The notes under the pieces were generated by a model. That model had not been told where the DNA came from. It ran no database searches and worked only from the letters and a program-made list of their open reading frames with translations. The position numbers and the translations under genes are program-made. From an uncultured Planctomycetota bacterium (GTDB taxonomy: Bacteria > Planctomycetota > Planctomycetia > Isosphaerales > Isosphaeraceae), in assembly GCA_963823665.1 (NCBI GenBank), contig CAWGMQ010000004.1, positions 2,368,001-2,432,000 of the forward strand: a stretch of 64,000 bases of DNA, given 5' to 3'. Position 1 is the stretch's first letter. Every line of letters begins with the position of its first letter. This document shows, in pieces, positions 26,607-43,115 of the stretch.

Positions 26607-28646
26607 TCATACGTGTCGTACCAAGAATTCCTCAGGTCGATGGTGCTTGACGGTGAGTTTGATCACTGCGCCACGCGAGCTAGCGCGTGCATTTGTTTGA
26701 GCATTCGAAACGATGCCAAAAAATGTGGTCCTGGTCGAAGTGATCGCCGCTTGACTGACCACCTTGATCGAATAGCCGAGTCCGACCCGATTCAACGTCA
26801 AGCCGCCAAACGCCGCCACTCCGTTCTGTGCCTGTAGAGTGAGAATGCCACCGAGCCGGCCACCGCCGGGCCCGCTCGCTCGCGATAATTTCACACTACC
26901 CGAATACGAATTCTCTAAGTTGCCAAATTGGTCTACGACGGCCACGCTTACCCCAAATGGCTGGTTTACGCCGATTCGCGCTGTTGGCTCGGAGAGGATG
27001 GCCAGCCGATTCGCGGCCGCCGGTGTTACCATAACGGGGTTTGTGATCGCGACGCTTTGGGCATAGGCTGCCTGGAGCGTATATCCCCTGCCCGCAACCT
27101 TGAGCGTGAGTCCAGCGAAGTTCGCTATTCCGTTCTGCGCCATGACGGTGAGCGTTCCACTCAGTGCGTCTCCCGTAGGATTATTTCCGAGCGATACCGT
27201 GATGCTTCCACTCCAGCCCTGCTCAATCATGCCGGCTGCGTTTTCGAACGCGACTGAAAAACCGAGGCCAGAACCGGCCTTCACAATTGCCGGCGGTTCA
27301 GTCGACACAACGAGTTTGTTCGTGGAGCCATAGGTTCCCAGGTCGTTCACCAAGACGTTCGCCTCTGGCGAACCCAATCCCGTCACTTCGTCATAGCCCA
27401 GCGCGGCACTGAAGCCGCCGTTACTGCCACTTGTGATGTCATGGTAGTCAGCAGTTGAGATCGAGTAAATTGCCGGCAATGTCTGACTCTCGCCGTTTAA
27501 CGTCGTGTTCCCCACGGCGGCTCGTTCCTGATTGGCTATCGCGATCAAGCTTGCCCAGATAGGTGCGGAAAAACTTGTGCCCCCTACCTGCTCCCATGGA
27601 GTCTCGCTGGTGTTGTTATAGGAGTCGAAGACTGCGACGCCTGTATCGGGATTAGCGTCGGAAGAAACGTCCGGAATGCTCCTGCGCAACGTGCCTGTGA
27701 TTGCAGCCTGGTAGTCCGGCTTCGTTTCAAACGCGCTGATACCACCACCGCTATCTGACCAAGCCGTCTCGCTGCCGTAAAATCCGTTTGCGCTCAGATA
27801 GAGGCTCGTTCCTCCGACGGCGAGCACATTCGGTGAATAAGCAGGATATTCACCGGGCGAACCCTGGTCTCCCGTGGAGGCCACAAACGTGACACCCTCG
27901 TGCCCGACCGGTGTTGTAAAATCAGTGTCGTAAGAAGTCTCGCCGCTGAATTCACTCGACCCCCAACTCATTGAGACAACCGACACGCCGGAAAGCCTCG
28001 CGGCGGTCATGACTCCCTGAAACATGTCAACGCTGCTGGCTGAGGCGCATTCGATAAGCACGATATTTGCTCCGGGCGCGAGTGCGTGGACCCATTCAAC
28101 GTCGAGGGCTTCCTCAACTTCCCAGTTCCCTTGCGGATTCCCGGCCCCAGCCGGGTCAGGACCAGGCAGATTGGTCATGCTTCCGTATTCGTTGATCTTG
28201 AAGAAACTGGGTGGGTTCTGTAACCCAAACATCTGATCAAACTTAGCCAGGTCACTGCCGAGAAAGCCGGGTCGTGTACTGTCCAGGAGTGCCGGATCGT
28301 CATAGGCGTCGACGACGGCGATCGTCTGGCCTGTACCATTGCCGATGCTGTTCAACCCGTACGCCTGAATCATCTGTGCCGGCGTGTAACCTGAAGGGTC
28401 GTTTGATCCCCAGCCCGCCGACGATATTGCTGACTTCACTGTACCGAGCGCGGTCAGGTCTGGGCCGTGGGATTGAACTCGCTCAAACGCTGGCTGCATG
28501 AGCACCGGCAAGTCAGCGCCGATGCTCGCTGTTGCCATCGAAAGCTCTGTCGGGACCACTCGAGCCTCCATGCTCTCCAGTGCATGACGCACAGAATGGC
28601 GATGTCGTGGCCGTTGCGCGTGGACGGAGCACCCAAACATTTTCAT
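26607..28646 (-). CDS. S53 (sedolisin-like) peptidase with two C-terminal Ig-like repeats
   Basis: GYTPAQMIQAYG, EEALDVEW, SMSWG, STGDQG, IPDVS, GGTSFSAP, GYDEVTGLGSP. LESMEARVVP planctomycete-type N-terminal motif. Confidence 0.9.
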   Translation of the reverse strand: MKMFGCSVHAQRPRHRHSVRHALESMEARVVPTELSMATASIGADLPVLMQPAFERVQSHGPDLTALGTVKSAISSAGWGSNDPSGYTPAQMIQAYGLNSIGNGTGQTIAVVDAYDDPALLDSTRPGFLGSDLAKFDQMFGLQNPPSFFKINEYGSMTNLPGPDPAGAGNPQGNWEVEEALDVEWVHALAPGANIVLIECASASSVDMFQGVMTAARLSGVSVVSMSWGSSEFSGETSYDTDFTTPVGHEGVTFVASTGDQGSPGEYPAYSPNVLAVGGTSLYLSANGFYGSETAWSDSGGGISAFETKPDYQAAITGTLRRSIPDVSSDANPDTGVAVFDSYNNTSETPWEQVGGTSFSAPIWASLIAIANQERAAVGNTTLNGESQTLPAIYSISTADYHDITSGSNGGFSAALGYDEVTGLGSPEANVLVNDLGTYGSTNKLVVSTEPPAIVKAGSGLGFSVAFENAAGMIEQGWSGSITVSLGNNPTGDALSGTLTVMAQNGIANFAGLTLKVAGRGYTLQAAYAQSVAITNPVMVTPAAANRLAILSEPTARIGVNQPFGVSVAVVDQFGNLENSYSGSVKLSRASGPGGGRLGGILTLQAQNGVAAFGGLTLNRVGLGYSIKVVSQAAITSTRTTFFGIVSNAQTNARASSRGAVIKLTVKHHRPEEFLVRHV

Positions 28647-28946
28647 CGACTCGCAGCAGTGCCATCCGGTCTAACGACGAGCGGTTCACATCGAATACCG
28701 GCGCCAGGAGGCTCTAATCAGCTCGCTCTCTGTCATGCGTCCTTGAGAAATGTAGGCTGCAACTCGGAGTTGAATCTCACGGACCTCCGTCATGTTGATG
28801 ATTTCCGTCGGTTCCCACCTGGCCAAGCCCACCGCCATGCCGTGATTGACCGCATCAGCGTACGTTTGCACAATAGGCGAACTGATGAAACAGGAAGCCC
28901 TCGTGCCGATAACACACCGAAGTCAGAGCGTCAGGGTTACATCGAT

Positions 28947-29333
28947 ATGGATTTGTGGTATCAGGTCGCTGCGCTGTCGGTGGGCGGAGTTCTGGGTGTC
29001 AATGCCCGATACTGGCTGGGCGGCTTGATCAATCGCTGGGCAGGCTCGCAGTTCCCATGGGCAACGTTCACCATCAATATCACCGGTTCATTCGCAATCG
29101 GGCTTTGTACCGTTTTTCTGGCACGCTGGGCTCCGCATGCCCACGCGCGGCTAGTTGTCGTGGTCGGCTTCCTAGGGGGCTACACAACGTTCTCATCCTA
29201 TTCATTTGAATCGCTTGCACTCTGGGAACGGGGCGAGCGCATGCTCTGCCTGGTCTACATGTTTGGAAGCGTTGCCGGGGGTTTTGCGGGTGTTGTTCTC
29301 GGAACCGCACTTGGCCGGGGACTCGCGAAATGA
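28947..29333 (+). CDS. crcB: Fluoride efflux channel FluC
   Basis: GGVLGVNARY, FPWATFTINITGSF, GFLGGYTTFSSY. 128 aa from ATG 28947. Confidence 0.95.
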   Translation: MDLWYQVAALSVGGVLGVNARYWLGGLINRWAGSQFPWATFTINITGSFAIGLCTVFLARWAPHAHARLVVVVGFLGGYTTFSSYSFESLALWERGERMLCLVYMFGSVAGGFAGVVLGTALGRGLAK

Positions 29334-29500
29334 CACCCGACAGTGTCCATCTCCTTCGGAATTGGTTCTCGTCCAGGATGCCGAGTTTCTCCACTACTGA
29401 CATCATGACGAGAAATGATGCAGCTTCGGCTCGGTCACTGCGCGTTGACACAAGGACGGAACTGGCGATTGCTGCAATCGCACACAACCAAAGCGCGACA

Positions 29501-32173
29501 TCATTCCTTCGGCGTTTCTACTCGCAGGGCCCTGGGCTTGTGGCAGCGTGTTCTTGCGTGTGATCGCGTCGCGGCTAGGTGAGGACCTCGATGCAGCAGC
29601 CTGGCAGGTTTTTTACTCGAAGAAGCGAGCATCGGGTTACATTCTCTCCACCATCTGAGTACTGGCCGCCGCAACTTGCATGCTGCTGCGCCGACCAAGA
29701 TTGCACAGGTCACGGCGCCAAGATCGACCTGCGCAGTAGCTCTCTCTCGTGTTCTCTTTTTTACCGGATTTTCAATGCCTGGGCTCAAGGCACGCCCACT
29801 GTGAACGAGATTGTCAACGGATTGCGTGCCACTTGCATCGGGCTGATCGTTAGCCCCCTTCGCGCTTGTCCCGAGCCAGCCCTGGACACGGGCGCCCAGC
29901 CGGAACAGCCACTCTACCTGGCTGAGCACTCGTTCATCAGCGGCTGAGCGATCGGTTTCTGGCCCGGAATGAGTCTGACTGGCAGCCGATGTCGCAGCGA
30001 GCATTGGCCCTTTGACGATAGCCTGTGCGGCCACCTGACCGGGGTTTACCGGTGGCTGCTGATCTTCGAGCCAAGTGTTCAGGTCGAGCGTGGTTTCGTA
30101 ACTAATACTGGGATCGAGGCTGTTGGCGCTGTTCGCCAGCGCCGTGGATCCGCCATCGACAATGGGACCAATGGCAGGAAGGCTCTGGCTCGAGAGTACC
30201 GGCTGTCCGATCAAGCCCGTGTTGAGTGTCACCATCAAGGTACTTGGAATCGGGCCCATCGATCCTGCGAAGTTGCTCGCGGAGACCGAGGTGGAAAATG
30301 CTGCATTCGTGCCGGCACTGTTCGCAGAATTACTGCCGCCACTGGCTCCTGCACCATCAAGGGCCGTCGAGAACAAGCTCAGCGAGAGCGCAGAGGTTTG
30401 ACTGACGCCGTTATTCAAGACCTTTTCCCAGTCAAGGGCTTCGATTGTGAACAACCAGTTGAACAACGCTGTTTGAGAGCCCGCGTTGATAAATCGAAGT
30501 GAGTACGTTCCATCATCTAATCGGAGCAGATCGCTGTTCAGTGCCTGATCAGTGCTCGCATACAGAATCGTTGTCGAGTTGTTTTCCGTGATCTCGACAG
30601 CTATATCTCCGGCTGTGATCTCGGTCTGGAGCTTGTGATAGCCGGGTACGATCACGTCAAAGCTGAAAACGATTGATTGACCGGCGGCGAGATCGGTTGT
30701 TTCCTGGAATGAACCCATTCCGGTTGACCCGGTCTGGTTCGACGACAAAGGCCAGAGTACGCCCAAGTTGTTCGGGGCTGGAGGCTGTGCCGACGGCGAG
30801 ACATTCCAGCTCGCCAGAACGCTCGAGGAGCCATTGGTCGGCAGGACCGGTTGCTCCGCAAGGTCGACCAGGCCGTGCGTAGCTGGGGAAACCAGCGTGT
30901 AGCTGCCCGGTGGCAGAGGACGGTCGAAAATGAGCTTGAGAGAGGCATCGCTCACCTCGTAGCTCTCGGCAGTCAACGGCCAAGTCTGCCCCCGTGAATC
31001 CACTAGCTCGAGGGCCGATTCTTGAATGTCGGGCACGAACAGGTTGCTGAGGTCGATCGGACCGGAAAATGTAAGTGTGATTCCGGTCGGGCTGTCTTGA
31101 CCGGAGGCCGAATAATCCAACGTGGAACTCAAGAGGCGCGTCGTCTGCGTATGAGGTGATTCGACGAGGTTGAGCGCAAAGAGCCCGCCGGACTGCGTGA
31201 TGCCGTTCAAGCCAGGAGTTCCCAGCACCGGGTCGTAACCTCCGGGACTGTATGGCACGTCGCTCGCACCGGAGATTCCTACGTAATAGGTGCCGGGCTC
31301 GAGTCCGGCGAAAAGATAGGGATCGTTTGGATTGGCAGGAATGCCCGTGCCGGAATTGCGGCTGGCAATCAGCGTGCCGTCCGCTTCAAAGAGCGAAAGG
31401 TCCGTGAGCAAGCTGCTGCCAATGCTGTTTGCTGAAATCGCGAGACCAACCTGCCAGAGATTGCCCGCGGGAAGCGTGAATTTATACAAGTCCACGGCCG
31501 CGGTAGAGTTGCTCGGGTCAATCCAACCCCATGTTGTCTGGCCCGGAATGAGTGAGCTGTCTAAAGGGCTGATCGTGGCCCCTTGACCTAAAATGGTGAA
31601 CGTTCCGATCGGCTGATCTTGATTCGGATCCCAGAGCAGCGGCCCCGGCCCATACGCACCGCTGGCCGCGTAGGAGATGCTCGTGCCTCCAACCAGATCG
31701 ATCTCGTACTGACCGGCGGGAAGGGTTACATTATCATATTCGTAATCACCGTAGTTAAACTTCTGCATCGGAACGATCAATTCAGTGCCTGTGGCGTCGG
31801 AGAGCTCAGGCGGAGCGTCGCCGAGATCCCAGAGCGGAATTTTTGTACCGTCACTGTTCAGCTCCTCGATCTGAACGTCGAAACTTCCCATCAAAACCGG
31901 CACGTTCACGTTGTTGAATGTGATAACCAGCTCCTGAGGTGACTGAGTCAAGCGCTCGCCGTTAAATGGCTGCAGTGAGGCAATCGGAGACAGACCTTCG
32001 CTCAAAAGCGCGCGAAGCTCAAGCTGTTCCAGGTTCGGGCGACGTCGACCGCTGACGCCATGGCGCACGCGAGACCCTGGAGGAAGCAAGTCCTGATCCC
32101 GGTTCGAGCAGAAGCTACGTTCGGCGAAATGAAGCCGCTTGAAAGTACAAATTCGCTTGAGCATAAGGTGCAA
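29501..32173 (-). CDS. Large secreted/surface protein with PPC/DVUA0089-like and Ig-like domains
   Basis: RRRPNLEQLELRALLS motif, VDLYKFTL...LSLF...NDPYLFAGLEPGTYYVGISG, late hydrophobic segment plus basic tail. Start uncertain. Confidence 0.75.
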   Translation of the reverse strand: MHLMLKRICTFKRLHFAERSFCSNRDQDLLPPGSRVRHGVSGRRRPNLEQLELRALLSEGLSPIASLQPFNGERLTQSPQELVITFNNVNVPVLMGSFDVQIEELNSDGTKIPLWDLGDAPPELSDATGTELIVPMQKFNYGDYEYDNVTLPAGQYEIDLVGGTSISYAASGAYGPGPLLWDPNQDQPIGTFTILGQGATISPLDSSLIPGQTTWGWIDPSNSTAAVDLYKFTLPAGNLWQVGLAISANSIGSSLLTDLSLFEADGTLIASRNSGTGIPANPNDPYLFAGLEPGTYYVGISGASDVPYSPGGYDPVLGTPGLNGITQSGGLFALNLVESPHTQTTRLLSSTLDYSASGQDSPTGITLTFSGPIDLSNLFVPDIQESALELVDSRGQTWPLTAESYEVSDASLKLIFDRPLPPGSYTLVSPATHGLVDLAEQPVLPTNGSSSVLASWNVSPSAQPPAPNNLGVLWPLSSNQTGSTGMGSFQETTDLAAGQSIVFSFDVIVPGYHKLQTEITAGDIAVEITENNSTTILYASTDQALNSDLLRLDDGTYSLRFINAGSQTALFNWLFTIEALDWEKVLNNGVSQTSALSLSLFSTALDGAGASGGSNSANSAGTNAAFSTSVSASNFAGSMGPIPSTLMVTLNTGLIGQPVLSSQSLPAIGPIVDGGSTALANSANSLDPSISYETTLDLNTWLEDQQPPVNPGQVAAQAIVKGPMLAATSAASQTHSGPETDRSAADERVLSQVEWLFRLGARVQGWLGTSAKGANDQPDASGTQSVDNLVHSGRALSPGIENPVKKRTRERATAQVDLGAVTCAILVGAAACKLRRPVLRWWRECNPMLASSSKKPARLLHRGPHLAATRSHARTRCHKPRALRVETPKE

Positions 32174-32293
32174 ACCCCCTGGCGATGCTGCGGTTCCATC
32201 CAGACGTTCACGCTTCTGCCATCTCTTCTAGCCTAGCTCGGCGACTTCGCCCGGAGCCCAGCGTGATGACGAAACGAATCACGAAGATGTGAA

Positions 32294-33768
32294 TCAGAGC
32301 AGCGAGTTCAGGTCATCGATTGACTGATCGACCGCCTGCAGCACCGTGGATACCGCCCCGGTACCGCTTGACGCACTCGATACCGACGTACTGCCATTGC
32401 TTGTTTGAGCAGTGTCTGAATTGGATGTTGACGCTGTTGTTCCGGCGATGGAAATGGCGACAGCTTGGAGAGCGGTTACCGTGCTGCTTGTTTGAGTGAG
32501 CAGACCTGCCGCGACGCTTCCGACCACATCAGGCACTATTGACATGGTCTCCACCCACCCGGTCAAGGTGCCTATGACGTTCTGCAGACCAAGATCCTCT
32601 AAAAGTCCAGTGAGTGGGTCGGTGGGGGGGGCGTTATCGTTGGATGTACCACCCGCCTGAGATGGCTGCGCAGCGACTACAGTAGAAGGCGGCGCTATGG
32701 CGCTTGTGGCTGCGAACCGAAGTTGACCTCCAAGCCGTAGGCGCCGATCGGGCCGGGCCCGCTGGCGGAGAGCACCTTGATGTAATACTCCTGGCCGGGC
32801 TGCACGCTCGCGCTTACGCTGAATGTTGCACCGAGCGAACCAATTGTGCCTGCCTCGCCAATCAAGCTGAGCGACGAGTTGTATACCTGCAGCTTGGGCG
32901 AAAGTGAGCTCAATGCGCTCGACTGCGCGGAGACGCTCATGGTTCCATTCGAGGTTGACGGCACGTTGACGGAAAACCATTCACTGTCACCGTCCGTCGT
33001 GATGTCGAGCCCGGACAGACTGATCTGATTGTTGCTCAGGAATGAGTTGATGGCCGTCGCCGTCGAATACGAATTGTTGCGTTTGGCGCCGGTATTGAAC
33101 TGATCGAACTGCGGTGTGCCGTAGATCGACTGGATGCCGCTGATGTCGTCGCTCGTGAGAGCCTGTTTGATTCCATTATATGTGCCGTACATCACGGCCG
33201 TGGAAACGGTCGATTCTCCCAGCCCCAGCGCATGTCCAAACTCGTGAGCGACGACCGTCAACAGGTCGTAGTTCGAGTTGATTTGCCAGTTGACACTTGA
33301 GTTAAGCAGGATGTCGCCCGCATCGGTGCCGCCATTGGCAGGGGGTGGCACGAAGGTGATTGCAAGGACGGACGAGCCCAATGGCACTGCACCAATGCGA
33401 ATATCTCCAAAACGTGGGTCATCTTGCTGATCTCCGGAGGTCCCCACCGGCTCGCCGCCGTCCGGCACCATTGCCAGATTGACGTTCGTGACATTCTCCC
33501 ACAACGACGCGGCTGTTTCGATTTGCTGCTCCCAAGTTGAAGTGGGGAACTTTGCATCGAGCATTTGAAAAAGCGTGCTTGGGACTCCGCCCACATTGGT
33601 CCCGTCGGGCATGAAGCTGTAAGTGATGCGGCTTGAGTAGGTCCACTGGTCACCCAGGGCGGAGTACAGCAAGAGTCGCGTTTCCAGGCCTTCCAGTTCC
33701 AGGCGCATGCCACGAAGATGCTTCTTTTGATTGCGTGTTCGACGAAAGGGCACACGAAGACCAAGCAT
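32294..33768 (-). CDS. Matrixin (M10)-like metalloprotease with PPC-like domain and Ser/Thr-rich tail, one frameshift near 32700
   Basis: LEGLETRLLL, ITYSFMPDG, FGDIRIGA, HEFGHALGLGES, Met-turn AVMYG. One extra C at GCG CC ATA joins ...QPQAP to IAPPSTV.... Confidence 0.85.
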
Positions 33769-34049
33769 TTTTCCAACTCCGGTTGCTTTTCAAGAGAGAA
33801 TTAAACGTGTGAGATTTGATGGCATCCATCGAATGCAACAGGCCGACACGACAAAACCTTGCACACAACCACGGCTGATGCCCGCGCACGGTCGTGCTGA
33901 TTCAAGCGTAGTCCGGCACTTTAATCAGAAGTTGAACCACGTTGTTTTCGGCCATCATTGCTGCGATCAGGCATCGAAGCCCGAGCCAAGGTGCGTTGCA
34001 GCGCAAACCCGCGGGGAGGCCGATTGATCTGTTACATCTCGATGCGGGT

Positions 34050-34095
34050 TAAAACGACAACGGCGGCGCTTCTCGGGAAGAGAAGCGTCGCCGTT
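34050..34095 (-). terminator. Long hairpin, probable terminator of the repeat-protein gene
   Basis: AACGGCGGCGCTTCTC (34059-34074) / GAGAAGCGTCGCCGTT (34080-34095), a 16-bp stem with one imperfect pair, followed on the minus strand by GTCGTTTT. Confidence 0.55.
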
Positions 34096-34182
34096 TGGCC
34101 GTCTTCAATCGCGGGGAACTTAAGTGGATTGCACCGATATCGAGTGTTTGCGCACCGAATCCGCCAAACGCCTCGACAAGCG

Positions 34183-35145
34183 TTACTGGCCAGACGCCTT
34201 GACTGGCGCCTGTGGAGCACCCATCGGACCACTGTAGCCGCCCTTACCAGGTGCTTGTGGTGCCGGAGAGACCTTCGCCGGTGCCTGGGCAGCCGGCAGA
34301 ATCTTGGCGGGGGCCTGAGCGGTTGGCGCTACTTTGCTCGGAGCCTGAGCGGCTGGCATGATCTTGGCCGGAGCCTGGGCGGCCGGTGAGACCTTGCTCG
34401 GAGCCTGAGCGGCTGGCATGATCTTGGCCGGAGCCTGGGCGGCCGGTGAGACCTTGCTCGGGGCCTGAGCAGCCGGCATGACTTTGCCCGGAGCTTGACC
34501 CGCGGGCATGACCTTGCTGGGAGCAGCGGCAGCCGCCGGCCAGCTCTTGGCGGGCGCTTGGGGTGCCGGAGAAACCTTGCTCGGAGCCTGGCCAGCGGGC
34601 ATGGCTTTGCCCGGGGCTTGCCCCGCGGGCATGACCTTGCCCGGAGCCTGGCCGGCGGGCATGACCTTGCTGGGAGCAGCGGCAGCAGCCGGCCAGCCTT
34701 TCCCAGGAGCTTGGGGAGCTGGTGAGATCTTGCTCGGGGCTTGCGCAGCCGGCATGACCTTACCCGGAGCTTGGCCCGCGGGCATAATCTTGCCAGGAGC
34801 TTGAGCAGCCGGCATCACCTTGCCCGGCGCCTGCGCAGCCGGAGAAACTTTACTCGGCGCCGCAGCCGCGGGCCAGCCTTTCCCCGGCGCTTGAGGCGCG
34901 GGAGAAACTTTGGTAGGGGCGACGGCCGCCGGCAACGATTTACCGGGAGCCTGGGCCGTCGGCGACACTTTACTGGGGGCAACAGCCGCGGGCAAACCCT
35001 TGGCCGGTGCCTGAGCAGCCGGGGCAACCTTACCTGGGGCCTGTGCCGCCGGCAACACTTTGCCTGGTCCCTGAGCTGCCGCCATGGGCCCTTGCGGGCT
35101 CTGGCCGGTCAGACCCAAGGCAAGTACCAATACCGCACTGGTCAT
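34183..35145 (-). CDS. Secreted Pro/Ala/Gln/Lys decapeptide-repeat protein (320 aa)
   Basis: AGAGGA RBS, short hydrophobic N-terminus MTSAVLVLALGLTG, then ~28 repeats of consensus V(M/S)PAAQAP(G/S/A)K with varied third codon positions. Confidence 0.85.
   Translation of the reverse strand: MTSAVLVLALGLTGQSPQGPMAAAQGPGKVLPAAQAPGKVAPAAQAPAKGLPAAVAPSKVSPTAQAPGKSLPAAVAPTKVSPAPQAPGKGWPAAAAPSKVSPAAQAPGKVMPAAQAPGKIMPAGQAPGKVMPAAQAPSKISPAPQAPGKGWPAAAAAPSKVMPAGQAPGKVMPAGQAPGKAMPAGQAPSKVSPAPQAPAKSWPAAAAAPSKVMPAGQAPGKVMPAAQAPSKVSPAAQAPAKIMPAAQAPSKVSPAAQAPAKIMPAAQAPSKVAPTAQAPAKILPAAQAPAKVSPAPQAPGKGGYSGPMGAPQAPVKASGQ
34230..35080 (-). repeat. 30-bp-unit coding tandem repeat array
   Basis: 30-nt period with two 33-nt units. 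Exact 60-bp tandem duplication at 34341-34400 / 34401-34460. Confidence 0.9.
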
Positions 35146-35729
35146 CGCGATGTCCTCTTGTGAAGAGTGAGTTTGACGGTCCCCGTCTCGATCGAGTCGG
35201 TGTTCTGAGAATCCCCTGATGGTCTGGTGCGGTCGCTGGTTGTTGAGCGTCCTTTTCGCCAGATCCACCGTCACAGTTCGGATCATCTGCCGAACGCATA
35301 AAAGCGTTCTCCAGTGAACCTGTTCCCCAACCCGCGCTCGGGAACCGATCACGCAGGCCTCGGCACGGTGGCGGAAGCCTCAAGCCGGTCGTCTTGGCCG
35401 ACTCTCGCTCTCCACCCCCAGGGGTGGCCATTGTGGTTATCGGCAGACCTGTTGTCCTCATTCACAGAACTTGAGAAAATCGAGGAACTGCCAGGTTGAC
35501 GAACTCTAGGGGCTTTGACGAGTTTCAAGAGAGTAGGTGGTGTATCTTGGAGAATTGACATCCACCAACGGTTGCTTCGAAGCCGAACGTTGAGTGTGTC
35601 TAGGAGGTCCGCGTCGGTCAGGATGAGTCGTTGCGGTTGTCGTGAAGAGGGATACTTCTGCGACTTCCGGGACTCGAGGGCCGGTGCTCTTCGGTTCAGC
35701 ATAATTCTACACCGGTATTGGGAGGCAGC

Positions 35730-37301
35730 ATGCGTATTGGCAACTGGCTCGGGGGTTCGGTGATCATGATGCTGGCTGTCGTCCATGGTATGGCGGCAAC
35801 CGCGCGCACTGCCGAGCAAGTCACGACTGTCCCGACGGCCGTCCCGCTCGGAGGATCACTCGACGGCCAGTCCGGCGATCATTATTTCGGTATCTATGTT
35901 CCGACGCGATTCGGAGGCGAGCTCCAGGTCAAATCAACGTCGGGCAAGGTCGCCGAGCTCAAGCGCCCCAATGGCACAGCGCTTGAGAACGGTCAGGACA
36001 TCGGGTTTGACCAGCATGGCTGGTATACCTTCAAAGTGGAAGGCGCTACGAAACCCTACTCGGTGGAGAACGCGTTCGTTCAACACGCACAGAGCACGAA
36101 GAAGCCCTGGAACTTCTACTACTGGCCGACCAAGGGTGACTCGATTCACGAGCCGTGGGCTGGCGGCAACGCGCGAGTTGACACAATGAGCAGAAACGGC
36201 GATGACATGTTCGTCGCTTCGCCAGGCGGCTATATCGCCCCGGGAAATGACATCATCCTCCCGGGTGCCAATGGATTACTGGAAACTCTCCCACAGGCCG
36301 GTGACGACGCCACCTGGTTCCCGAACCTGTACGACGACTTGACCTGGGTTGGCCCGGACAAGAACAACGGCGGTCAAATCACACGGTTCATGACCCCGTC
36401 ACCCATGCTGAAATACGACCAGCTCTTCGGAACCTCGGGCCGTCAATGGGAAGCGGCGTTCAGCCAGAACAGGGATATCTCGCGCTGGCCCGGCCATTGC
36501 CTCGGAGGCGCTGTTGCGTCGATCCTCTTGAATGAGCCGACTCCGGCGCCCTGGACCGGGATGACTCGTGATGAACTCAAGGCCCTCTGGGCGGAGCTGG
36601 GCGAAAATCACTACAACCACCGGATTGGCGACTATGCCAACGAAATTCCTCCTGGCCCCCCCCGCCCTGGTTATGATGTGTGCGACTGGAAAGCCCCCAG
36701 GGTGCACGCGATGCTCGAGACCCACATTCGGGGTGAGAAGAAGGCCCTCCTCGCCAATCTCCGGGCGTTTCCACCGCGCGGAACGATCAATGAGGTATGG
36801 AACCACGGCGTTTACATGTACACCGCCAAGTACAATTCCATCGCTGGCCGCGGTCCCCGTGCCGTCAAGATCTCGCTCGAGCTTCACGCCAACTCGGGTT
36901 CTTGCATCAACGGTCAAGACGACAAAGATCGGGTGATCTACTACGAGTACAACCTGGTTTACGGCCTGGACGGCAAGATCGACGAATCCAATCCGGCCGC
37001 CGCCGACTGGATCTCGGTTCGTGGCGAAGCCCTTTTCGCCCCGCTGAATGTTCTCGAGCTGGTCGAATCACGCTGGGCCGGCCACAACCAGCAGATCACC
37101 GAAGGGAACGTCCGGTCGCTCGACCTGGCGAACGGCGGCACCAATCGTCAGCGGGTCGCGCAAGCACCGCAGTTTCGACCTGTGCTGGAGTATGAAGCCG
37201 GTCGTCCCAGAATGATCGCCGCCGATACGACGACGGAAGAAGATCGACCCCGATCGGGTGGAGGAGGCGGGTTCTTCAGAAGGATCTTCGGTGGCCGTTA
37301 A
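35730..37301 (+). CDS. Secreted protein, putative transglutaminase-elicitor (GP42-like) family enzyme
   Basis: GGAGG RBS and signal peptide. Ordered motifs PWNFYYWP, SPMLKYD, WPGHCLGGAVASILLNEP, ELKAL, EVWNHGVY, YEYNL...DGKI. Confidence 0.65.
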   Translation: MRIGNWLGGSVIMMLAVVHGMAATARTAEQVTTVPTAVPLGGSLDGQSGDHYFGIYVPTRFGGELQVKSTSGKVAELKRPNGTALENGQDIGFDQHGWYTFKVEGATKPYSVENAFVQHAQSTKKPWNFYYWPTKGDSIHEPWAGGNARVDTMSRNGDDMFVASPGGYIAPGNDIILPGANGLLETLPQAGDDATWFPNLYDDLTWVGPDKNNGGQITRFMTPSPMLKYDQLFGTSGRQWEAAFSQNRDISRWPGHCLGGAVASILLNEPTPAPWTGMTRDELKALWAELGENHYNHRIGDYANEIPPGPPRPGYDVCDWKAPRVHAMLETHIRGEKKALLANLRAFPPRGTINEVWNHGVYMYTAKYNSIAGRGPRAVKISLELHANSGSCINGQDDKDRVIYYEYNLVYGLDGKIDESNPAAADWISVRGEALFAPLNVLELVESRWAGHNQQITEGNVRSLDLANGGTNRQRVAQAPQFRPVLEYEAGRPRMIAADTTTEEDRPRSGGGGGFFRRIFGGR

Positions 37302-37303
37302 TT

Positions 37304-37404
37304 GTCAGTGGTCAGTGGTCAGTTGCTTGTCGTGCCCCTGGGTGCAATGCACGATTCAAGAGGTGCCGCATTCAAGCAACTGACCACTGCAAATTACAAC
37401 TAAC
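37304..37404 (+). repeat. Heptamer-repeat-based inverted repeat (hairpin) directly after the stop codon
   Basis: GTCAGTG GTCAGTG GTCAGTT, with a perfect 17-bp IR CAGTGGTCAGTTGCTTG (37313-37329) / CAAGCAACTGACCACTG (37373-37389). Confidence 0.75.
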
Positions 37405-37633
37405 AATTGTATCGATTCTTCCGACCGCTCAATCAAATCGATCGGGTCTCCTTTCGATTTCGTCATTTTCGTCACGGCTGTTCAAGTTTGACGGCGACGG
37501 CAGACGATTAATCAGTTCGACTCAGTCGAGCCGCCGTGCGTTGAAAGCTCCACTCCAGCGCACCAGGTGGCCGACTACTGGAAGCCGCTGCCGCGAGTTG
37601 TGACGGGTCTTCTCTGAGCGTTAGGGTGCTGCC

Positions 37634-38176
37634 ATGAGCCACGGCGATCTCGATCTCGTGATAAACGACCCGACGGTGGATGATTCCCAACGGATGCTTT
37701 TGCATTCGCTGGCCGTCATGATCGAGGTACCCGCGGTCAAGCCAAGCCCGATCGAGCGGGTCCCGCGGACGAACTCGCGGACCGCGCGAACAGTGAAACG
37801 AGCGTCTCGCCGTTCCAGGCGACGTGTTCGCCGGAAGGTATACCTGGCTGGTTGTACCCTGCTGGCTTTGGTACCGATCGTCTCGGCGTGCACACTCGGT
37901 TGGTCAAATCGGCCGGACCGCATCATCGCCTGTTCGATCCCAGAACCGCTGCAAGCGGCGAGCACGATGGATCGCGACAGTTTCTCCCAGATGGCGCCCT
38001 CCGACGGAACAGAAACTGCGACGGGGCAGGCGATGATCGCCTCGCGTAGGACCGCCATCGTCTCCGGTGAGGCAGCGGCCGTGGCACCCGTGAGTGCCGT
38101 CGAGCCTCCCGTGATTTTGCCCGGCTATTTGCTACCGGATGACAGCCGCGAGGATGTGTTGCATGAGGGAAGTTGA
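37634..38176 (+). CDS. Hypothetical single-pass membrane protein
   Basis: Arg-rich stretch, TM helix, C-terminal PVILPGYLLPDD. Overlaps the start of the next gene. Confidence 0.65.
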   Translation: MSHGDLDLVINDPTVDDSQRMLLHSLAVMIEVPAVKPSPIERVPRTNSRTARTVKRASRRSRRRVRRKVYLAGCTLLALVPIVSACTLGWSNRPDRIIACSIPEPLQAASTMDRDSFSQMAPSDGTETATGQAMIASRRTAIVSGEAAAVAPVSAVEPPVILPGYLLPDDSREDVLHEGS

Positions 38177-38932
38177 CGAGGCACTGGCACGGGCTTACGC
38201 CAAGCGCGACGTGGCCGATCAACCCCAGGGAGTACCTCCAGCACCCATCTGCCGGCTCGCGTACTCCACCCGGAACGCAATGAGCAACCCGAATTAGAAA
38301 AGTCGGTCGAATTGCAGTGGCCTGCACTCGTCCTGGCACTCGAACGGAATTGGGGCGCACGGTTCGAGCGAATGGCGCAGCTTCTCCTCGCTGCGCAAAA
38401 ACAGCAGAGCTTGAAGGCCATTCTTTTCACGAGCTGTCATCGCGCTGAAGGGCGCACGACCCTTGTTCTAACCCTGGCGCGGGCCCTTTCTCGCCATCCG
38501 CTTCGTACGCTCATCGTGGACAGCGATTTGACCGGCCCGATGGTTGCAAGGCTGGTGGGCCTGCGACCGCATGTGGGGCTTGAAGATGTGGTTGAGGATG
38601 GCAAGGCCCTCGCGGATGCGCTGATCGACGCATCCGACGATCATCTCACAATCTTGCCCATGCGCACGGCGGTCTCGCGACCGCGCGACTTCCTTGCGAG
38701 CCCTGCCTGGACTTGCACGCTTGCCCGGCTCCGGCGTGAATTCGATCTCATTCTGCTAGACGGCGGCCCCCTCTTCACCGGATTGAGCGCAGCCCTGTTG
38801 CACCGGTCGGTCGATGCAGCGGTTCTGGTGCACCACAAAGGGATGACCGGTGAGCGTGCCGTGCTCCGCGCCCGCGAGGTCCTCGAGGCGGGAGGAATCC
38901 CCCTTCTGGGATTAGCGGAGACCTTCGTGTAA
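38163..38932 (+). CDS. CpsD/CapB (BY-kinase/MinD-like) P-loop protein, frameshift at the C-run 38244-38246
   Basis: ILFTSCHRAEGRTT, LIVDSDL, FDLILLDGGP. ATG 38163 (MREVDEALARAY...) joins the downstream frame if one C is added. Confidence 0.75.
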
Positions 38933-38945
38933 GGCGGGAGGCCCT

Positions 38946-39743
38946 GTGTACGAAGCACACTACGGCCTGAACGAGCGCCCGTTCGGTGAGACCACAAGCA
39001 CTGCGGCGTACGTTGCCGTGCCAAGCCGTGATGCGATTGTACGACGGTTGCACTACGCACTTATGCACGACGCCGGGCCAGCGATGCTTGTTGGCCCTCC
39101 CGGCTCGGGCAAAACCATCGTTGCCCGTCGAATGGCGGCTGAACTGAGCGCACTTCCGGTGCATGTCGTGTTTCCCGCGCTCTCGCCGGCGGAGCTACTC
39201 GCATACCTGGCCCATGAATTCGGCCACACAGCTCACGTGGACCCCTCTCCGCACCTGGCTCTACGTTACCTCCGTGACCGTTTTGCCGCGATGGCGAAGA
39301 ACGGAGAACGACCGCTGGTCATCGTCGATGACGCACACTTGATCCGAGACCTCGCGACCTTTGATGTCTTGCGGCTCCTGCTCAATTTCAACTCAACCGA
39401 ACGGCCTGACCTTGCGCTCCTTCTTGTCGGCGCCCCGGAACTGGTCCTTGACCTGCCGGCTGGACTGGCCGACCGCCTCGCGACGCGAACCGTAGTAGGC
39501 CCTTTTTCCGACGAAGAGTCTGCCACTTATATTGTCGGCCGACTGGGCAATATCGATGCTCGAGAGCACCTCTTCACCCGAGGTGCCCTGGCCTCGCTTC
39601 ATCAGGCTGCCGATGGTCTGCCTCGTCGTCTCAACCGTTTGGCTGACTTGGCTTTGCTGATTGCATACGCACAAGATCGCACTGGCGTCGATGATTCGGT
39701 CGTGCAGATTGCAGCCCGAGAGCTCAATCGCGAGGCGGCCTGA
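38946..39743 (+). CDS. ExeA/GspA-family AAA ATPase
   Basis: YEAHYGLNERPF, GPPGSGKT, VIVDDAH, LLLVGAPEL, GLPRRLNRLADLALL. Confidence 0.9.
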   Translation: MYEAHYGLNERPFGETTSTAAYVAVPSRDAIVRRLHYALMHDAGPAMLVGPPGSGKTIVARRMAAELSALPVHVVFPALSPAELLAYLAHEFGHTAHVDPSPHLALRYLRDRFAAMAKNGERPLVIVDDAHLIRDLATFDVLRLLLNFNSTERPDLALLLVGAPELVLDLPAGLADRLATRTVVGPFSDEESATYIVGRLGNIDAREHLFTRGALASLHQAADGLPRRLNRLADLALLIAYAQDRTGVDDSVVQIAARELNREAA

Positions 39744-39967
39744 ATCAAGCCAAGTTGTCCAGCCTCGAACCCCCCCTACCCCATCTGCCTTTCCAAATCT
39801 CCCTATCCTCTTTCGTCGCTTGCCCGCGTCGAAATCTCGGGTGAGTCCGGCAGACGAAATGGAGACCTCGCGATAGAATCCCGGCCCCGTGGATACTCAG
39901 GGCTGCCGACCGCTCTTCAATGTGCGACGGGCAGAGATGGATTGACGCCGAATCAGGGAGGACCAAA

Positions 39968-41689
39968 GTGGCGACTCCGCGAGATGATAGAAGGACGTGT
40001 CTCCGCAACATCATCCTTTCGATCGTTGCACTCGCTTCAACCGGCATACTCCGGCCTGCGCCTTTGCATGGGCAGGATCCGCCCGCTGCTCCGACTCCCA
40101 TTCCTGATGCACCCGCGGCGCAAGGGGGAGCAGCAGAACCGGCGGCGGATCAAACCGACGCCCAGGGCGGGCAAGTCATGACGCGCGGCCCGATTCACGA
40201 GGCGTTCGCCGCGCCGGTCGTCCATGATCCCAAAGCCTCGCCGCCAATCGAGAAGCAACCGCCGGCACCGATCCAGGAAGAACCACCCGACCAGAAGCCA
40301 GCCGGTCAGAATGTCCAATGGATACCCGGTTACTGGAGCTGGGACGTCTCTCGCAGTGATTTCATCTGGGTGAGCGGAATCTGGCGCGAGCCGCCGCCGA
40401 ACAGCCAATGGGTGCCCGGCTACTGGCACGATGTCGAAGGGGGCCACCAATGGGTCGCGGGAACCTGGATTCCTGCGAGCACGGCACAGTCGCAAAGCCA
40501 GCAATCGTACCTACCGCCACCACCGGCGAGCCTCGAGGCCGGAGCTAACTCGCCACCGCCGGCGGCCAACGTGAACTGGACTCCTGGTTACTGGTCCTGG
40601 CAGGCGTCGGGCTATGTCTGGCGGCCTGGATTCTGGGCCGCCGTTCAGCCGAACTGGATCTGGATGCCGGCGCACTACGTTTATACCCCGAGCGGCTATC
40701 TTTTTGTGCCGGGCTACTGGGATCTACCGGTTGCAAATCGTGGCCTGATGTTCGCACCGGTTTATTATCCTCAGCCGGTTTACGCGCAGCCGGGATTCTC
40801 ATTCACGCCGTCGATCAGCATCGTCGGATCGGCCGTGACGGCCAACCTGTTCGTGCAGGCAAGCACTAACCAGTACCTCTTCGGTAATTTTTACGCTCAG
40901 AACTTTGTGAGCGTCGGAATCACACCCTGGTTCTCTTTCTCGTTTGCAGCGGGCCGGCCCGCGTATTACGACCCGCTATTCTCGTACTACGCCGTGATCA
41001 ACGTGCGGCAGAACCCGGGCTGGGTGGCGGCTGTGCGCGAACAGTATGCCCTTCGTCTGGCGCGACCAGAGCTGAGGCCACCAAACACTTTCATCGAGCA
41101 GACGCGCATCATCGAGCGAAACGTGACCATCAACCGTAATATCACGGTTGTCGATCACCGTGAGCTGGCGATGCCGCTGAGCAAACTGGCGGCCGAACCC
41201 GGCCGGGGAATGCGACTGGTCAAGGTGGAAGAAGCCGAGCGCCAGCAAATCCGGCGACAGACGGCCGAGTTGCATCAGTTTCGCAAGCAGCGTTTGCAGC
41301 AAGAACGACAGGGAGCGAGAGAACGCGCCGCCGACGGTGGCAACCGACCCCGTCCGATGAATCTGCCGCACTCGCCGGTTGCTGCTCACCCTGCGCACGC
41401 GGATGTTGCTCATCATGTGGGAGAAGCTCATCCCGGCGGTGCACAGCAGGGTGCCGCCCGGCGATCGGATATGTTGCAGCATTCGTCGCGAGAGCCGGCA
41501 GCAGGACGAGCCGCGCATTCAGGCGAGGCCGCGGCTGAAGCACGGCGGCCGGCTCAAGGAGCAGGAAACGCCCGCAATCAGGCACGGCCGGGAACGGGTC
41601 GTCCCGCGGCTCGTGAACCAGCGCGTTCTGCTGCGGGCGAGCGAAATCGCCAGCGCGGGCGCGAGAACGAGGAAGAAAAGCCTCGTTAA
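39968..41689 (+). CDS. WXXGXW (YXWGXW) repeat-containing exported protein
   Basis: RGPIHEAFA, repeated WIPGYWSW, WVSGIW, WVPGYW, WTPGYW, WRPGFW, FVPGYW, and a low-complexity tail. AGGGAGG RBS before GTG 39968. Confidence 0.88.
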   Translation: MATPRDDRRTCLRNIILSIVALASTGILRPAPLHGQDPPAAPTPIPDAPAAQGGAAEPAADQTDAQGGQVMTRGPIHEAFAAPVVHDPKASPPIEKQPPAPIQEEPPDQKPAGQNVQWIPGYWSWDVSRSDFIWVSGIWREPPPNSQWVPGYWHDVEGGHQWVAGTWIPASTAQSQSQQSYLPPPPASLEAGANSPPPAANVNWTPGYWSWQASGYVWRPGFWAAVQPNWIWMPAHYVYTPSGYLFVPGYWDLPVANRGLMFAPVYYPQPVYAQPGFSFTPSISIVGSAVTANLFVQASTNQYLFGNFYAQNFVSVGITPWFSFSFAAGRPAYYDPLFSYYAVINVRQNPGWVAAVREQYALRLARPELRPPNTFIEQTRIIERNVTINRNITVVDHRELAMPLSKLAAEPGRGMRLVKVEEAERQQIRRQTAELHQFRKQRLQQERQGARERAADGGNRPRPMNLPHSPVAAHPAHADVAHHVGEAHPGGAQQGAARRSDMLQHSSREPAAGRAAHSGEAAAEARRPAQGAGNARNQARPGTGRPAAREPARSAAGERNRQRGRENEEEKPR

Positions 41690-41714
41690 CTGCGGTCTCT
41701 CGGCATACCTTGGT

Positions 41715-43115
41715 CTACGCCGGCCCGGGCAGCGCTAACGCCGGGTCGCCGTAGACCATGTACTTCATACCCTGGAAGAAAATGCTCGCGGGGTACCAAT
41801 CCTTGTTCGGCGCAATGGTTTCCAGGTGCTCAGCATTGTAGTAATAGTTGATGGCGCCAGCCCAGCAGTCACCGACCGTTGGCTCAGGCAGGTCGTGTAA
41901 TGTCTGGACAAACCCCTCAAGCAATGTCAGGCCACACGGCTGGCCTCCCGTGTTGCATCCGATGTAGGCAACGGCTCCGGTCATGCCGTGACGCACCAGG
42001 ACTTTACCTAGCCCTGTGTAATTATAGGCTCCCCGGGCATAAGGCGACGGAGGCGGTGGCGGGGACGTGAAAACCTCGCCAGCATCTGTTCCTGCGTGCT
42101 TCGCGCCGTGGACATCCTCGTAAGGCTCATAAGGCGGTAATGTGGCAAACCTCGCCGTCGAACAGCCGGCCGAGAGCATGACAGGCAGCCGATCACCGTT
42201 TTGCAGGTGCGACAGCGTACGAGCTCGAATGCTGTGAACCCAGCCGTTGTCTTCGCCATGCCCCACGTGGAAGACGAGTGAAGCACCCTTGTTCAAAAGC
42301 GCGGCGACATGACCTTCGTCGGACGAATTTGCCTTTGCCCCGCTACCGTAGAGCTTCAAGCTTTTCCATCCGGCCGGAAGTTCTTGGGTCCACCGGTCCA
42401 TCTGTCTGCGGGCATCGACCCAGCCAGGCACGTAGATAAACGCCGCAGTTCGAGCGGCCTCTTTCTTCATCATCAGATTGGCTCGGTCCTGCGCGATCGT
42501 CTTGTCAGCTAATAGCTCGACCTGGGCAGCGGAATCAACAGGCCAGCGACCAACGGCGAGCTCTGCCCGGTAATCGATCTGATCGAAGTTGATCGGATCG
42601 CTCTTGTTCTTCTCGCCGCGCACTTCGCCAAAGTACGACGCGTGAAACCCGTCCTTGCGTGCATTCCAGTCGTCAAAGCTGCCGTCGCGCCGGGCAACAT
42701 CTGCGTAATAGAGATCGGAAGGGTAGAAGGCGTAGTCGAAAGCCGTGGGCGTCACGCGGTCCAGGACCATATACCGCACCGGCACGATGTCGGCGTCTCC
42801 TACCAAGAGCACGTAGCGCAGACGCCGCTGCTTGTACTCGTCGTAGAGCCAGCGCTTCAGGCGCTCCGGGTCATCTGCCCCCGTGGTTTCCTTGAGGATC
42901 GCCTCGAGCGATGCCAGTTTGGTCGGGCGCTGTTCCGATCGGTAGGCGATGAATCTCGCCAGAGCCTGGTGGAACCGTTCCGGGGCAACGACGACCATTT
43001 CCCGCCGCCCGTCGGCTGGAAGGTGTGACCCTTCCACTCCGCCTGACGTGAAAGCTGCGAAAATGAGACTAAATGCGACGATACGAGGGTAAGGTCGCGG
43101 CAGTAGCCTTTGCAT
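41715..43115 (-). CDS. C25 (gingipain-like) cysteine peptidase
   Basis: Signal peptide, YVLLVGDA, SDLYYAD, AVGRWP, HVGHG, SAGCST, GAVAYIG, YGDPAL. Confidence 0.88.
   Translation of the reverse strand: MQRLLPRPYPRIVAFSLIFAAFTSGGVEGSHLPADGRREMVVVAPERFHQALARFIAYRSEQRPTKLASLEAILKETTGADDPERLKRWLYDEYKQRRLRYVLLVGDADIVPVRYMVLDRVTPTAFDYAFYPSDLYYADVARRDGSFDDWNARKDGFHASYFGEVRGEKNKSDPINFDQIDYRAELAVGRWPVDSAAQVELLADKTIAQDRANLMMKKEAARTAAFIYVPGWVDARRQMDRWTQELPAGWKSLKLYGSGAKANSSDEGHVAALLNKGASLVFHVGHGEDNGWVHSIRARTLSHLQNGDRLPVMLSAGCSTARFATLPPYEPYEDVHGAKHAGTDAGEVFTSPPPPPSPYARGAYNYTGLGKVLVRHGMTGAVAYIGCNTGGQPCGLTLLEGFVQTLHDLPEPTVGDCWAGAINYYYNAEHLETIAPNKDWYPASIFFQGMKYMVYGDPALALPGPA

Follow-up and report, generated by a model that had tools for sequence, protein, structure and literature searches.

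Do two genes that stand back to back in the genome of an uncultured planctomycete encode an enzyme and the protein that it cross-links? The genes lie in a 64,000-nucleotide stretch of contig CAWGMQ010000004.1 (assembly GCA_963823665.1, family Isosphaeraceae), referred to here as the window, whose DNA has a guanine plus cytosine (GC) content of 67%. A preliminary description, made from the sequence letters, had read them as a transglutaminase-like enzyme and a Gln/Lys-repeat protein on either side of a gap of about 580 bp, and had suggested that together they build a cross-linked protein mesh. The enzyme-repeat pair is real and conserved, and the enzyme has the fold of GP42 from Phytophthora sojae, with a His that precedes rather than follows the conserved Cys. 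The pair consists of the following features:

34183..35145, minus strand: repeat protein gene, a translated open reading frame (ORF) of 320 residues, the proposed Gln/Lys substrate
34198..35088, minus strand: repeat array, residues 20-316, with 28 APxK motifs including 23 QAPxK and a period of 10 residues
35146..35729, no strand assigned: divergent intergenic region of 584 bp with conserved sequence blocks
35730..37301, plus strand: gene for the GP42-fold cysteine enzyme, 523 residues, with an N-terminal hydrophobic helix at 1-29

The repeat protein passes from a short hydrophobic N-terminus into decapeptide repeats of Ala, Pro, Gly, Lys and Gln. The divergent arrangement and the width of the gap were described correctly, as was the array, for which about 28 repeats had been counted, each with a Lys and about 23 with a Gln; of 29 segments that end in Lys, two are irregular and 27 regular (25 with 10 residues, two with 11), and 23 carry QAPxK. 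Gln is missing from 5 of the 27 regular units. The whole protein holds 29 Lys and 27 Gln, and is devoid of Arg, Asp, Glu, Asn, His, Cys and Phe. When the 16.5-Mb genome was searched with a DNA pattern encoding two QAPxK units in a row, all 16 matches fell at the pair locus, and the reversed control did not match at all. A Pfam scan of the 320 residues gave no match and an Atlas search no usable one (a homologue search there returned 26 proteins); a resemblance to the Ala/Lys/Pro-rich Rv3852 family is weak and far under cut-off. The presence of Lys but not Arg, and of Gln but neither Glu nor Asn, at such a GC content fits a transglutaminase substrate rather than a mere cationic polymer. The hydrophobic N-termini of both the repeat protein and the enzyme look by eye like signal peptides, and both proteins are presumably exported.

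The enzyme gene is single-copy in its genome, and the sequence of its product yields little directly: comparison with Pfam, NCBIfam and PDB gave nothing useful, profile A1 returned chance-level rows from PDB, and a PF16683 scan of the whole genome gave no match in a run where no control matched either. The predicted structure is confident (predicted local distance difference test score 90.3, built on 105 sequences). Searched with Foldseek, it returned GP42 (PDB 3TW5, PF16683) as its only match at E ≤ 0.001 (E 1.4e-5, probability 1.00), and among 48,161 chains 3tw5 alone reached Z ≥ 8 (Z 18.2, root-mean-square deviation [rmsd] 3.2 Å, 255 residues aligned), the next chain standing at Z 6.7. The structural kinship that had been proposed is thereby upheld, and the four motifs on which it was based are present in GP42 order: PWNFYYWP (126), SPMLKYD (224-230), WPGHC...ASILLNEP (253-270) and EVWNHGV (355-361). 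Profile A2 (35 sequences) found 3tw5 as its sole PDB match (E 0.012). The TGase_elicitor family PF16683 was matched by 5 of 66 distant enzyme relatives (E 8e-6 to 4e-4, one exceeding the cut-off), profile A1 matches 16 PF16683-positive proteins at E 9e-41 to 6e-7 (21-sequence set), and the Cys-His member L154 aligns by pairwise blastp with both the window enzyme (8e-10) and 3tw5 (9e-13). Judged by these sequences, the link between the enzyme and PF16683 is transitive, running through relatives. The first named Atlas cluster for the enzyme, PPC + TGase_elicitor (0.88), is a lead only. Homology to GP42 is well supported by the Foldseek and Z-score matches, the match of profile A2 and the PF16683-positive relatives. 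The two proteins share the fold and the order of the motifs; in both, the core helix begins with a Cys and the core strand with Trp-Asn, and a weak profile alignment also pairs an acidic residue on the following helix. They differ in that the window enzyme is only 14-19% identical to GP42 and under the Pfam cut-off, reads His-Cys-Leu, has Gly/Ala for the Pro of WNQP, and adds a PPC-like N-domain, an Asp/Gly module and a dedicated repeat gene next door.

If the fold is that of GP42, is the active site too? Its parts are as follows:

36486..36539, plus strand: catalytic helix motif W253-P270, with His256 (36495-36497), Cys257 (36498-36500) and Leu258 at the position of the GP42 His
36603..36605, plus strand: Glu292, aligned with an Asp on the GP42 non-core helix
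36792..36812, plus strand: EVWNHGV, where the core strand begins, with Trp357 and Asn358 conserved and His359 variable

Conservation was counted over an alignment of 105 enzyme relatives. Cys257 is kept in 104, starts helix 257-266 in the model and falls, in the alignment with 3tw5, on the Cys position that is mutated there. The Cys of the GP42-like motif in the preliminary description is thus confirmed; what that description missed is that Cys-His has given way to His-Cys, the Ile-Cys-His of GP42 being replaced by His-Cys-Leu. His256, directly before the Cys, is kept in 101 relatives, as is Asn358, which starts strand 358-370 and aligns with the Asn of GP42 WNQP; Trp357 and Asp319 are each kept in 102. 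Column 292 holds Glu in 63 and Asp in 22, and the match of Glu292 to the GP42 Asp rests on a weak profile alignment. His359 of WNHG was rejected as the canonical catalytic His because its position varies (His 69, Gln 29).

A review of papain-like enzymes places the GP42 His right after the Cys and gives it as partner either an Asn of strand beta2 or an Asp from a helix outside the core (PMC10318531). A Bacillus transglutaminase can use Cys with the directly preceding Glu (PMC10318531), and since a residue before the Cys is employed there, a His-Cys dyad is plausible. The arrangement is not peculiar to the window: of the 16 different PF16683-positive planctomycete proteins whose motif could be read (20 loci returned), 15 have His-Cys, one of them scoring 4e-60, and none has Cys-His. 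Planctomycete PF16683 members (L082-L101, L199-L237) are fused to EF-hand, TPR, FG-GAP, Ig-like and dockerin domains and are mostly His-Cys. No description of a His-Cys GP42 variant was found in the literature searched, mainly open papers and abstract openings, and the same search turned up no earlier description of the pair, in line with the preliminary description. By its motif the enzyme is a GP42-fold His-Cys variant that stands apart from the GP42 transglutaminases of Cys-His type; it is a putative transglutaminase, and the chemistry is not simply transferable from Cys-His to His-Cys-Leu.

How far does the pairing extend? A sample of the class comprised 300 genomes in 22 families, 73 of them from Isosphaeraceae and 227 from elsewhere. 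The enzyme was found in 70 of the 73 Isosphaeraceae genomes and in one of the 227 others, there as a weak Cys-His match, and the tandem QAPxK pattern in 58 and one, respectively. The pattern matches in G321, from another family, were discarded as a different repeat by eye. Pairing was scored on the best 80 of 104 relative loci, the window's own excluded, by a script that asked for an upstream opposite-strand ORF containing PxK and Gln. A divergent repeat gene was recorded at 62 loci and not at 13, and five loci were too short, so that the repeat neighbour predicted from the window is a regular companion of the enzyme. On reading, one locus scored negative (L068) carries such an ORF and one short locus (L016) shows its N-terminus. 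The other 12 loci scored negative comprise six that share an assembly with a paired locus, three second copies in Singulisphaera whose better-scoring copy has a partner, one in a genome with a frameshifted second enzyme copy beside repeats, and, as the last two, L004 and L028. Fourteen Isosphaeraceae genomes have the enzyme and lack the strict pattern; in each of the eight read by hand a divergent gene for a protein with a hydrophobic start accompanies the enzyme, and its Pro/Gln/Lys repeat is of another kind; one of these partners is frameshifted, one is truncated by the end of a contig and one has a gap. These counts are not independent trials, the genomes being kin. Records of Paludisphaera, Aquisphaera, Singulisphaera, Tautonia and Tundrisphaera carry the pair. 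So does L066, a record titled Candidatus Kuenenia stuttgartiensis, which is Isosphaeraceae-like and may reflect a binning or labelling error. Frameshifts occur in the repeat gene, and in some enzyme genes, of several long-contig assemblies (L002, L003, L008, L018, L021, L072, L183-L185), and many short contigs end within the repeat; both are probably sequencing or assembly errors.

The partners are not copies of one sequence. Period, length and filler residues differ between them, and Gln and Lys are retained. One variant is PPPSKQCPPISGPIC, with a PPPSKQCPP unit and adjacent KQ; others are built on CPQAPTK, on AAAGK with AAQGP, or on PQK and PKK. Arg and acidic residues are rare in the partners by eye, having been counted for the window's protein only. 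The spacing of Gln and Lys is i+4 at most loci and adjacent (KQ) or longer at others, and this variability favours bonds between chains and disfavours one fixed ring. The retention of Gln and Lys, together with the absence of Arg, Glu and Asn, is the main support, of an indirect kind, for a possible enzyme-substrate relation. Some partners are Cys-rich Pro/Gln/Lys proteins (L142:1946-2332, minus strand; L152:2329-2683, minus strand; L177:3440-3976) that resemble SPRR proteins in make-up, and in those lineages disulfides could add to a mesh. A second class of QAPxK gene (L174:1381-1926, L164:1198-1818) has a different N-terminus, is unlinked to the enzyme and is flanked by a TPR-like gene and an RNA-binding gene (RRM-like by eye).

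It is on balance probable that the enzyme, once exported, joins Gln and Lys of repeat-protein chains by isopeptide bonds and so builds a mesh outside the cell. By analogy with GP42, Cys257 would attack the Gln side chain of a repeat protein, forming a thioester with release of ammonia, and a Lys of another chain would resolve the thioester into an epsilon-(gamma-glutamyl)lysine bond. His256 before the Cys probably stands in for the His that follows it in GP42, and Asn358 and Glu292 or Asp319 may assist it. As each extended Ala/Pro chain offers about 23 Gln and 29 Lys sites, many bonds could form, and the resulting insoluble mesh might serve as a coat, as cell-to-cell glue or as an attachment matrix. 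A complex prediction for enzyme residues 30-478 and repeat residues 212-261 scored 0.00 and was counted neither for nor against.

Several observations weigh against this mechanism. The position of the GP42 catalytic His is Leu258 in the window enzyme, in a column of Leu (61), Trp (26), Gly (3) and Asp (3) among the 105 relatives. The Trp and Pro of the Pep-13 motif are important in GP42, and the Pro of WNQP is Gly/Ala here (position 360, Ala 50 and Gly 48 of 105). The papain-like fold is also used by peptidases and amidases, as rows 2-50 of the structural matches illustrate. Extra enzyme copies without a repeat partner exist, and most of the unpaired loci are such copies. Conversely, G380 (99% complete, 2 contigs) keeps a second-class QAPxK gene, and neither a protein nor a profile search found the enzyme there; in G512 (77% complete), too, the QAPxK pattern is present and the enzyme was not found. 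His-Cys relatives occur in 23 of 400 genomes from other planctomycete classes, with varied surface domains, and a tandem-repeat scan of 6 of 10 of their regions, one of which was also read for ORFs, found no comparable repeat array, so that the His-Cys form needs no repeat neighbour. Finally, the wall of Isosphaera pallida is described as having no Cys, Met, Pro or Trp (PMC3072084). A wall without proline is a misfit for a Pro-rich main component; the assay may simply have missed these residues.

Of the other explanations, all of them unlikely, the least improbable dispenses with a substrate relation altogether. The two genes might share regulation only, the repeat protein being a cationic polymer like an extensin or a histone tail, with an affinity for polysaccharide, DNA or surfaces; the enzyme would then act on other targets or merely bind. 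The persistence of the unlinked repeat gene in G380 without the enzyme, the His-Cys proteins of other classes that have varied surface domains and no repeat neighbour, and the faint Rv3852 similarity far under cut-off all suit this explanation. A role of charge would nevertheless leave both the absence of Arg and the retention of Gln unexplained, and Cys257 is nearly invariant; a family-wide divergent pair that sets a transglutaminase fold beside Gln/Lys repeats is unlikely to be coincidence. Alternatively, the enzyme might act on the repeat protein as a transamidase or deamidase without making a mesh, anchoring the chain to envelope proteins, peptidoglycan amines or polyamines, or tuning its charge by turning Gln into Glu. 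Fold and pairing fit this equally well, the changed catalytic motif could alter the second step of the reaction, and Gln and Lys are not always 1:1, as the units without Gln attest. We nonetheless consider it quite unlikely, for every partner that was read retains Lys as well as Gln, almost never exchanging it for Arg, and a protein serving purely as Gln acceptor would have no need of Lys.

The repeat protein might also be a precursor of many short peptides: in such precursors a signal is typically followed by many near-identical units, and the repeat protein has that layout. Its processing could be papain-like cleavage, or closure of a Gln(i)-Lys(i+4) lactam over Ala-Pro-x to give a macrocycle like those of ribosomally synthesized and post-translationally modified peptides. 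The structural neighbours ranked under GP42 are mostly peptidases, the papain motif is also Cys-Trp, a pair seen in 26 of the 105 relatives, all distant, and the i+4 spacing is fixed at most loci. Against this stand the adjacent KQ and longer spacings found across the family, the lack of a processing peptidase or dedicated exporter adjoining the pair in the window, and the Pro two residues before every Lys, which would suit an extended, protease-resistant chain; we hold the precursor explanation to be improbable, marginally more so than anchoring or deamidation. Cross-linking between chains is the explanation that we favour.

What would such a cross-linked mesh resemble? In Bacillus subtilis, Tgl welds spore-coat proteins by Gln-Lys bonds (PMC6490927). 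Tgl is likewise a bacterial transglutaminase, and its substrates SafA/C30, GerQ and YeeK are coat proteins; it differs in acting on the spore inside the mother cell, and is absent from the listed structural matches of the enzyme model. Tgl is not known to have substrates that are decapeptide arrays with a signal peptide and whose genes stand divergently next to its own. Since transglutaminase-welded coats are known from Bacillus spores, the kind of structure proposed here is not new. The cornified-envelope SPRR proteins and Candida Hwp1 are Pro-rich Gln/Lys repeat substrates of transglutaminases. Their likeness to the repeat protein is so far compositional, some partners being Cys-Pro-Gln-Lys repeats of similar make-up; they are eukaryotic and served by another transglutaminase family. 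GP42 itself is described as cell-wall-associated (PMC9105555).

Within the planctomycetes, sodium dodecyl sulfate (SDS)-resistant proteinaceous envelopes have been reported widely (PMC3422733, PMC12673574), and YTV-repeat Cys-rich proteins have been tied to the proteinaceous wall in Rhodopirellula, Gemmata and Tuwongella (PMC12673574). The repeat here is another one, the window's protein has no Cys, and the pair is restricted to Isosphaeraceae. As an explanation of the planctomycete wall in general the pair was rejected: it was found in one of the 22 families of the class sample, and a pair confined to one family cannot explain that wall generally. It may bear on the old question of what binds together an SDS-resistant protein envelope or matrix, and cultured strains carry it. 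A more ambitious version, which we put forward as a tentative and rather doubtful proposal, is a coat or intercellular glue throughout the non-sporulating, Gram-negative Isosphaeraceae, made from a dedicated Gln/Lys repeat protein, welded by isopeptides through a GP42-fold transglutaminase with a reversed His-Cys dyad and switched on by sigma28, although a search of the genome found no flagellin; it would be a bacterial counterpart of the cornified envelope and possibly part of the reported SDS-resistant envelope. If cross-linking is correct, this would, as far as we could find, be the first substrate and role for any bacterial GP42-fold enzyme; it would establish the His-Cys active site, the arrangement that predominates in the planctomycete PF16683 members read, as a variant of its own, and it would extend transglutaminase-built coats beyond spores to a Gram-negative family. 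Isosphaeraceae abound in soils and peat. For ligation work, too, a transglutaminase that recognises a specific sequence and comes with a natural tag of five residues, QAPxK, would be useful.

The intergenic region offers candidates for the regulation of the pair:

35356..35429 (approximate ends), minus strand: long conserved hairpin that opens the leader of about 290 nt of the repeat gene
35437..35464, minus strand: TGAA-N16-GCCGATAA, a candidate sigma28-like promoter directed towards the repeat gene, with a putative function
35582..35588, plus strand: GCCGAAC, facing the enzyme gene, with a GCCGAA core invariant in 13 aligned sequences

Upstream of the repeat gene, the leader (35146-35429, minus strand) is conserved. 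In its hairpin 93.8% of cells are paired and 6 of 23 pairs show two-sided changes (17 sequences), and the controls lean in its favour because this alignment also supplied the structure. An Rfam search over 33000-38500 gave no family match, with three matches far below gathering scores. The leader is possibly a new cis-regulatory or stabilising RNA. Relatives carry the promoter candidate as T(A/G)AA-N16-GCCGATAA, in which the -10 element is conserved and matches exactly. For E. coli sigma28 the consensus is given as TAAAGTTT-n11-GCCGATAA (PMC2859248); set against it as TAAA-N15-GCCGATAA, the window element has a spacer of 16, one base longer. A 23-base pattern across the element matches 64 of 198 loci, many of them duplicates or unrelated, and a strict pattern finds seven sites genome-wide versus three for its control, barely an enrichment. 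One FliA/WhiG sigma factor exceeds the cut-off in the genome (L188:1474-2262), beside a gene that is MinD/FlhG-like by eye, and flagellin was not found in the genome (91.9% complete; the control matched in 4 of 14). GCCGAAC is a possible second promoter element. In one RNA run (share 0.05), eight contigs of relatives (identity 95-99% for one, 90-95% for two and below 90% for five) covered the leader (35137-35433), the start of the enzyme gene (35630-35874) and bits of the repeat; such contigs show no strand, start or level and were not counted as evidence.

Two further domains of the enzyme lie outside its catalytic motifs:

35823..36080, plus strand: N-terminal beta-sandwich, residues 32-117, like PPC and collagenase collagen-binding domains
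36141..36305, plus strand: inserted Asp/Gly-rich module, residues 138-192, which recurs in a 3805-residue protein

Structural matches of the sandwich to PPC and collagen-binding domains are middling (Z 4.3-4.6, rmsd about 2 Å). The 55-residue Asp/Gly-rich module, which has no Pfam model, is present in about 20 copies in the 3805-residue protein P0162 and is possibly a calcium-binding or adhesive repeat.

Downstream of the repeat gene (26607-33768, minus strand) lie three same-strand genes with planctomycete 'LE.LE.R' type N-termini. One encodes a matrixin-like M10 peptidase, one a large Ig/PPC protein and the third a protein that has no Pfam match and is subtilase-like by eye; they were not seen adjoining the pair in the relatives examined. 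On the 3′ side of the enzyme gene (37634-43115) are genes for a CpsD/ParA-like ATPase, an ExeA-like AAA ATPase (by eye), a WXXGXW-repeat protein and a C25 peptidase. Just past the repeat gene in two genomes stands a MerR-type regulator (L142:336-1673, L152:1089-2204), with a possible B12-binding domain by eye.

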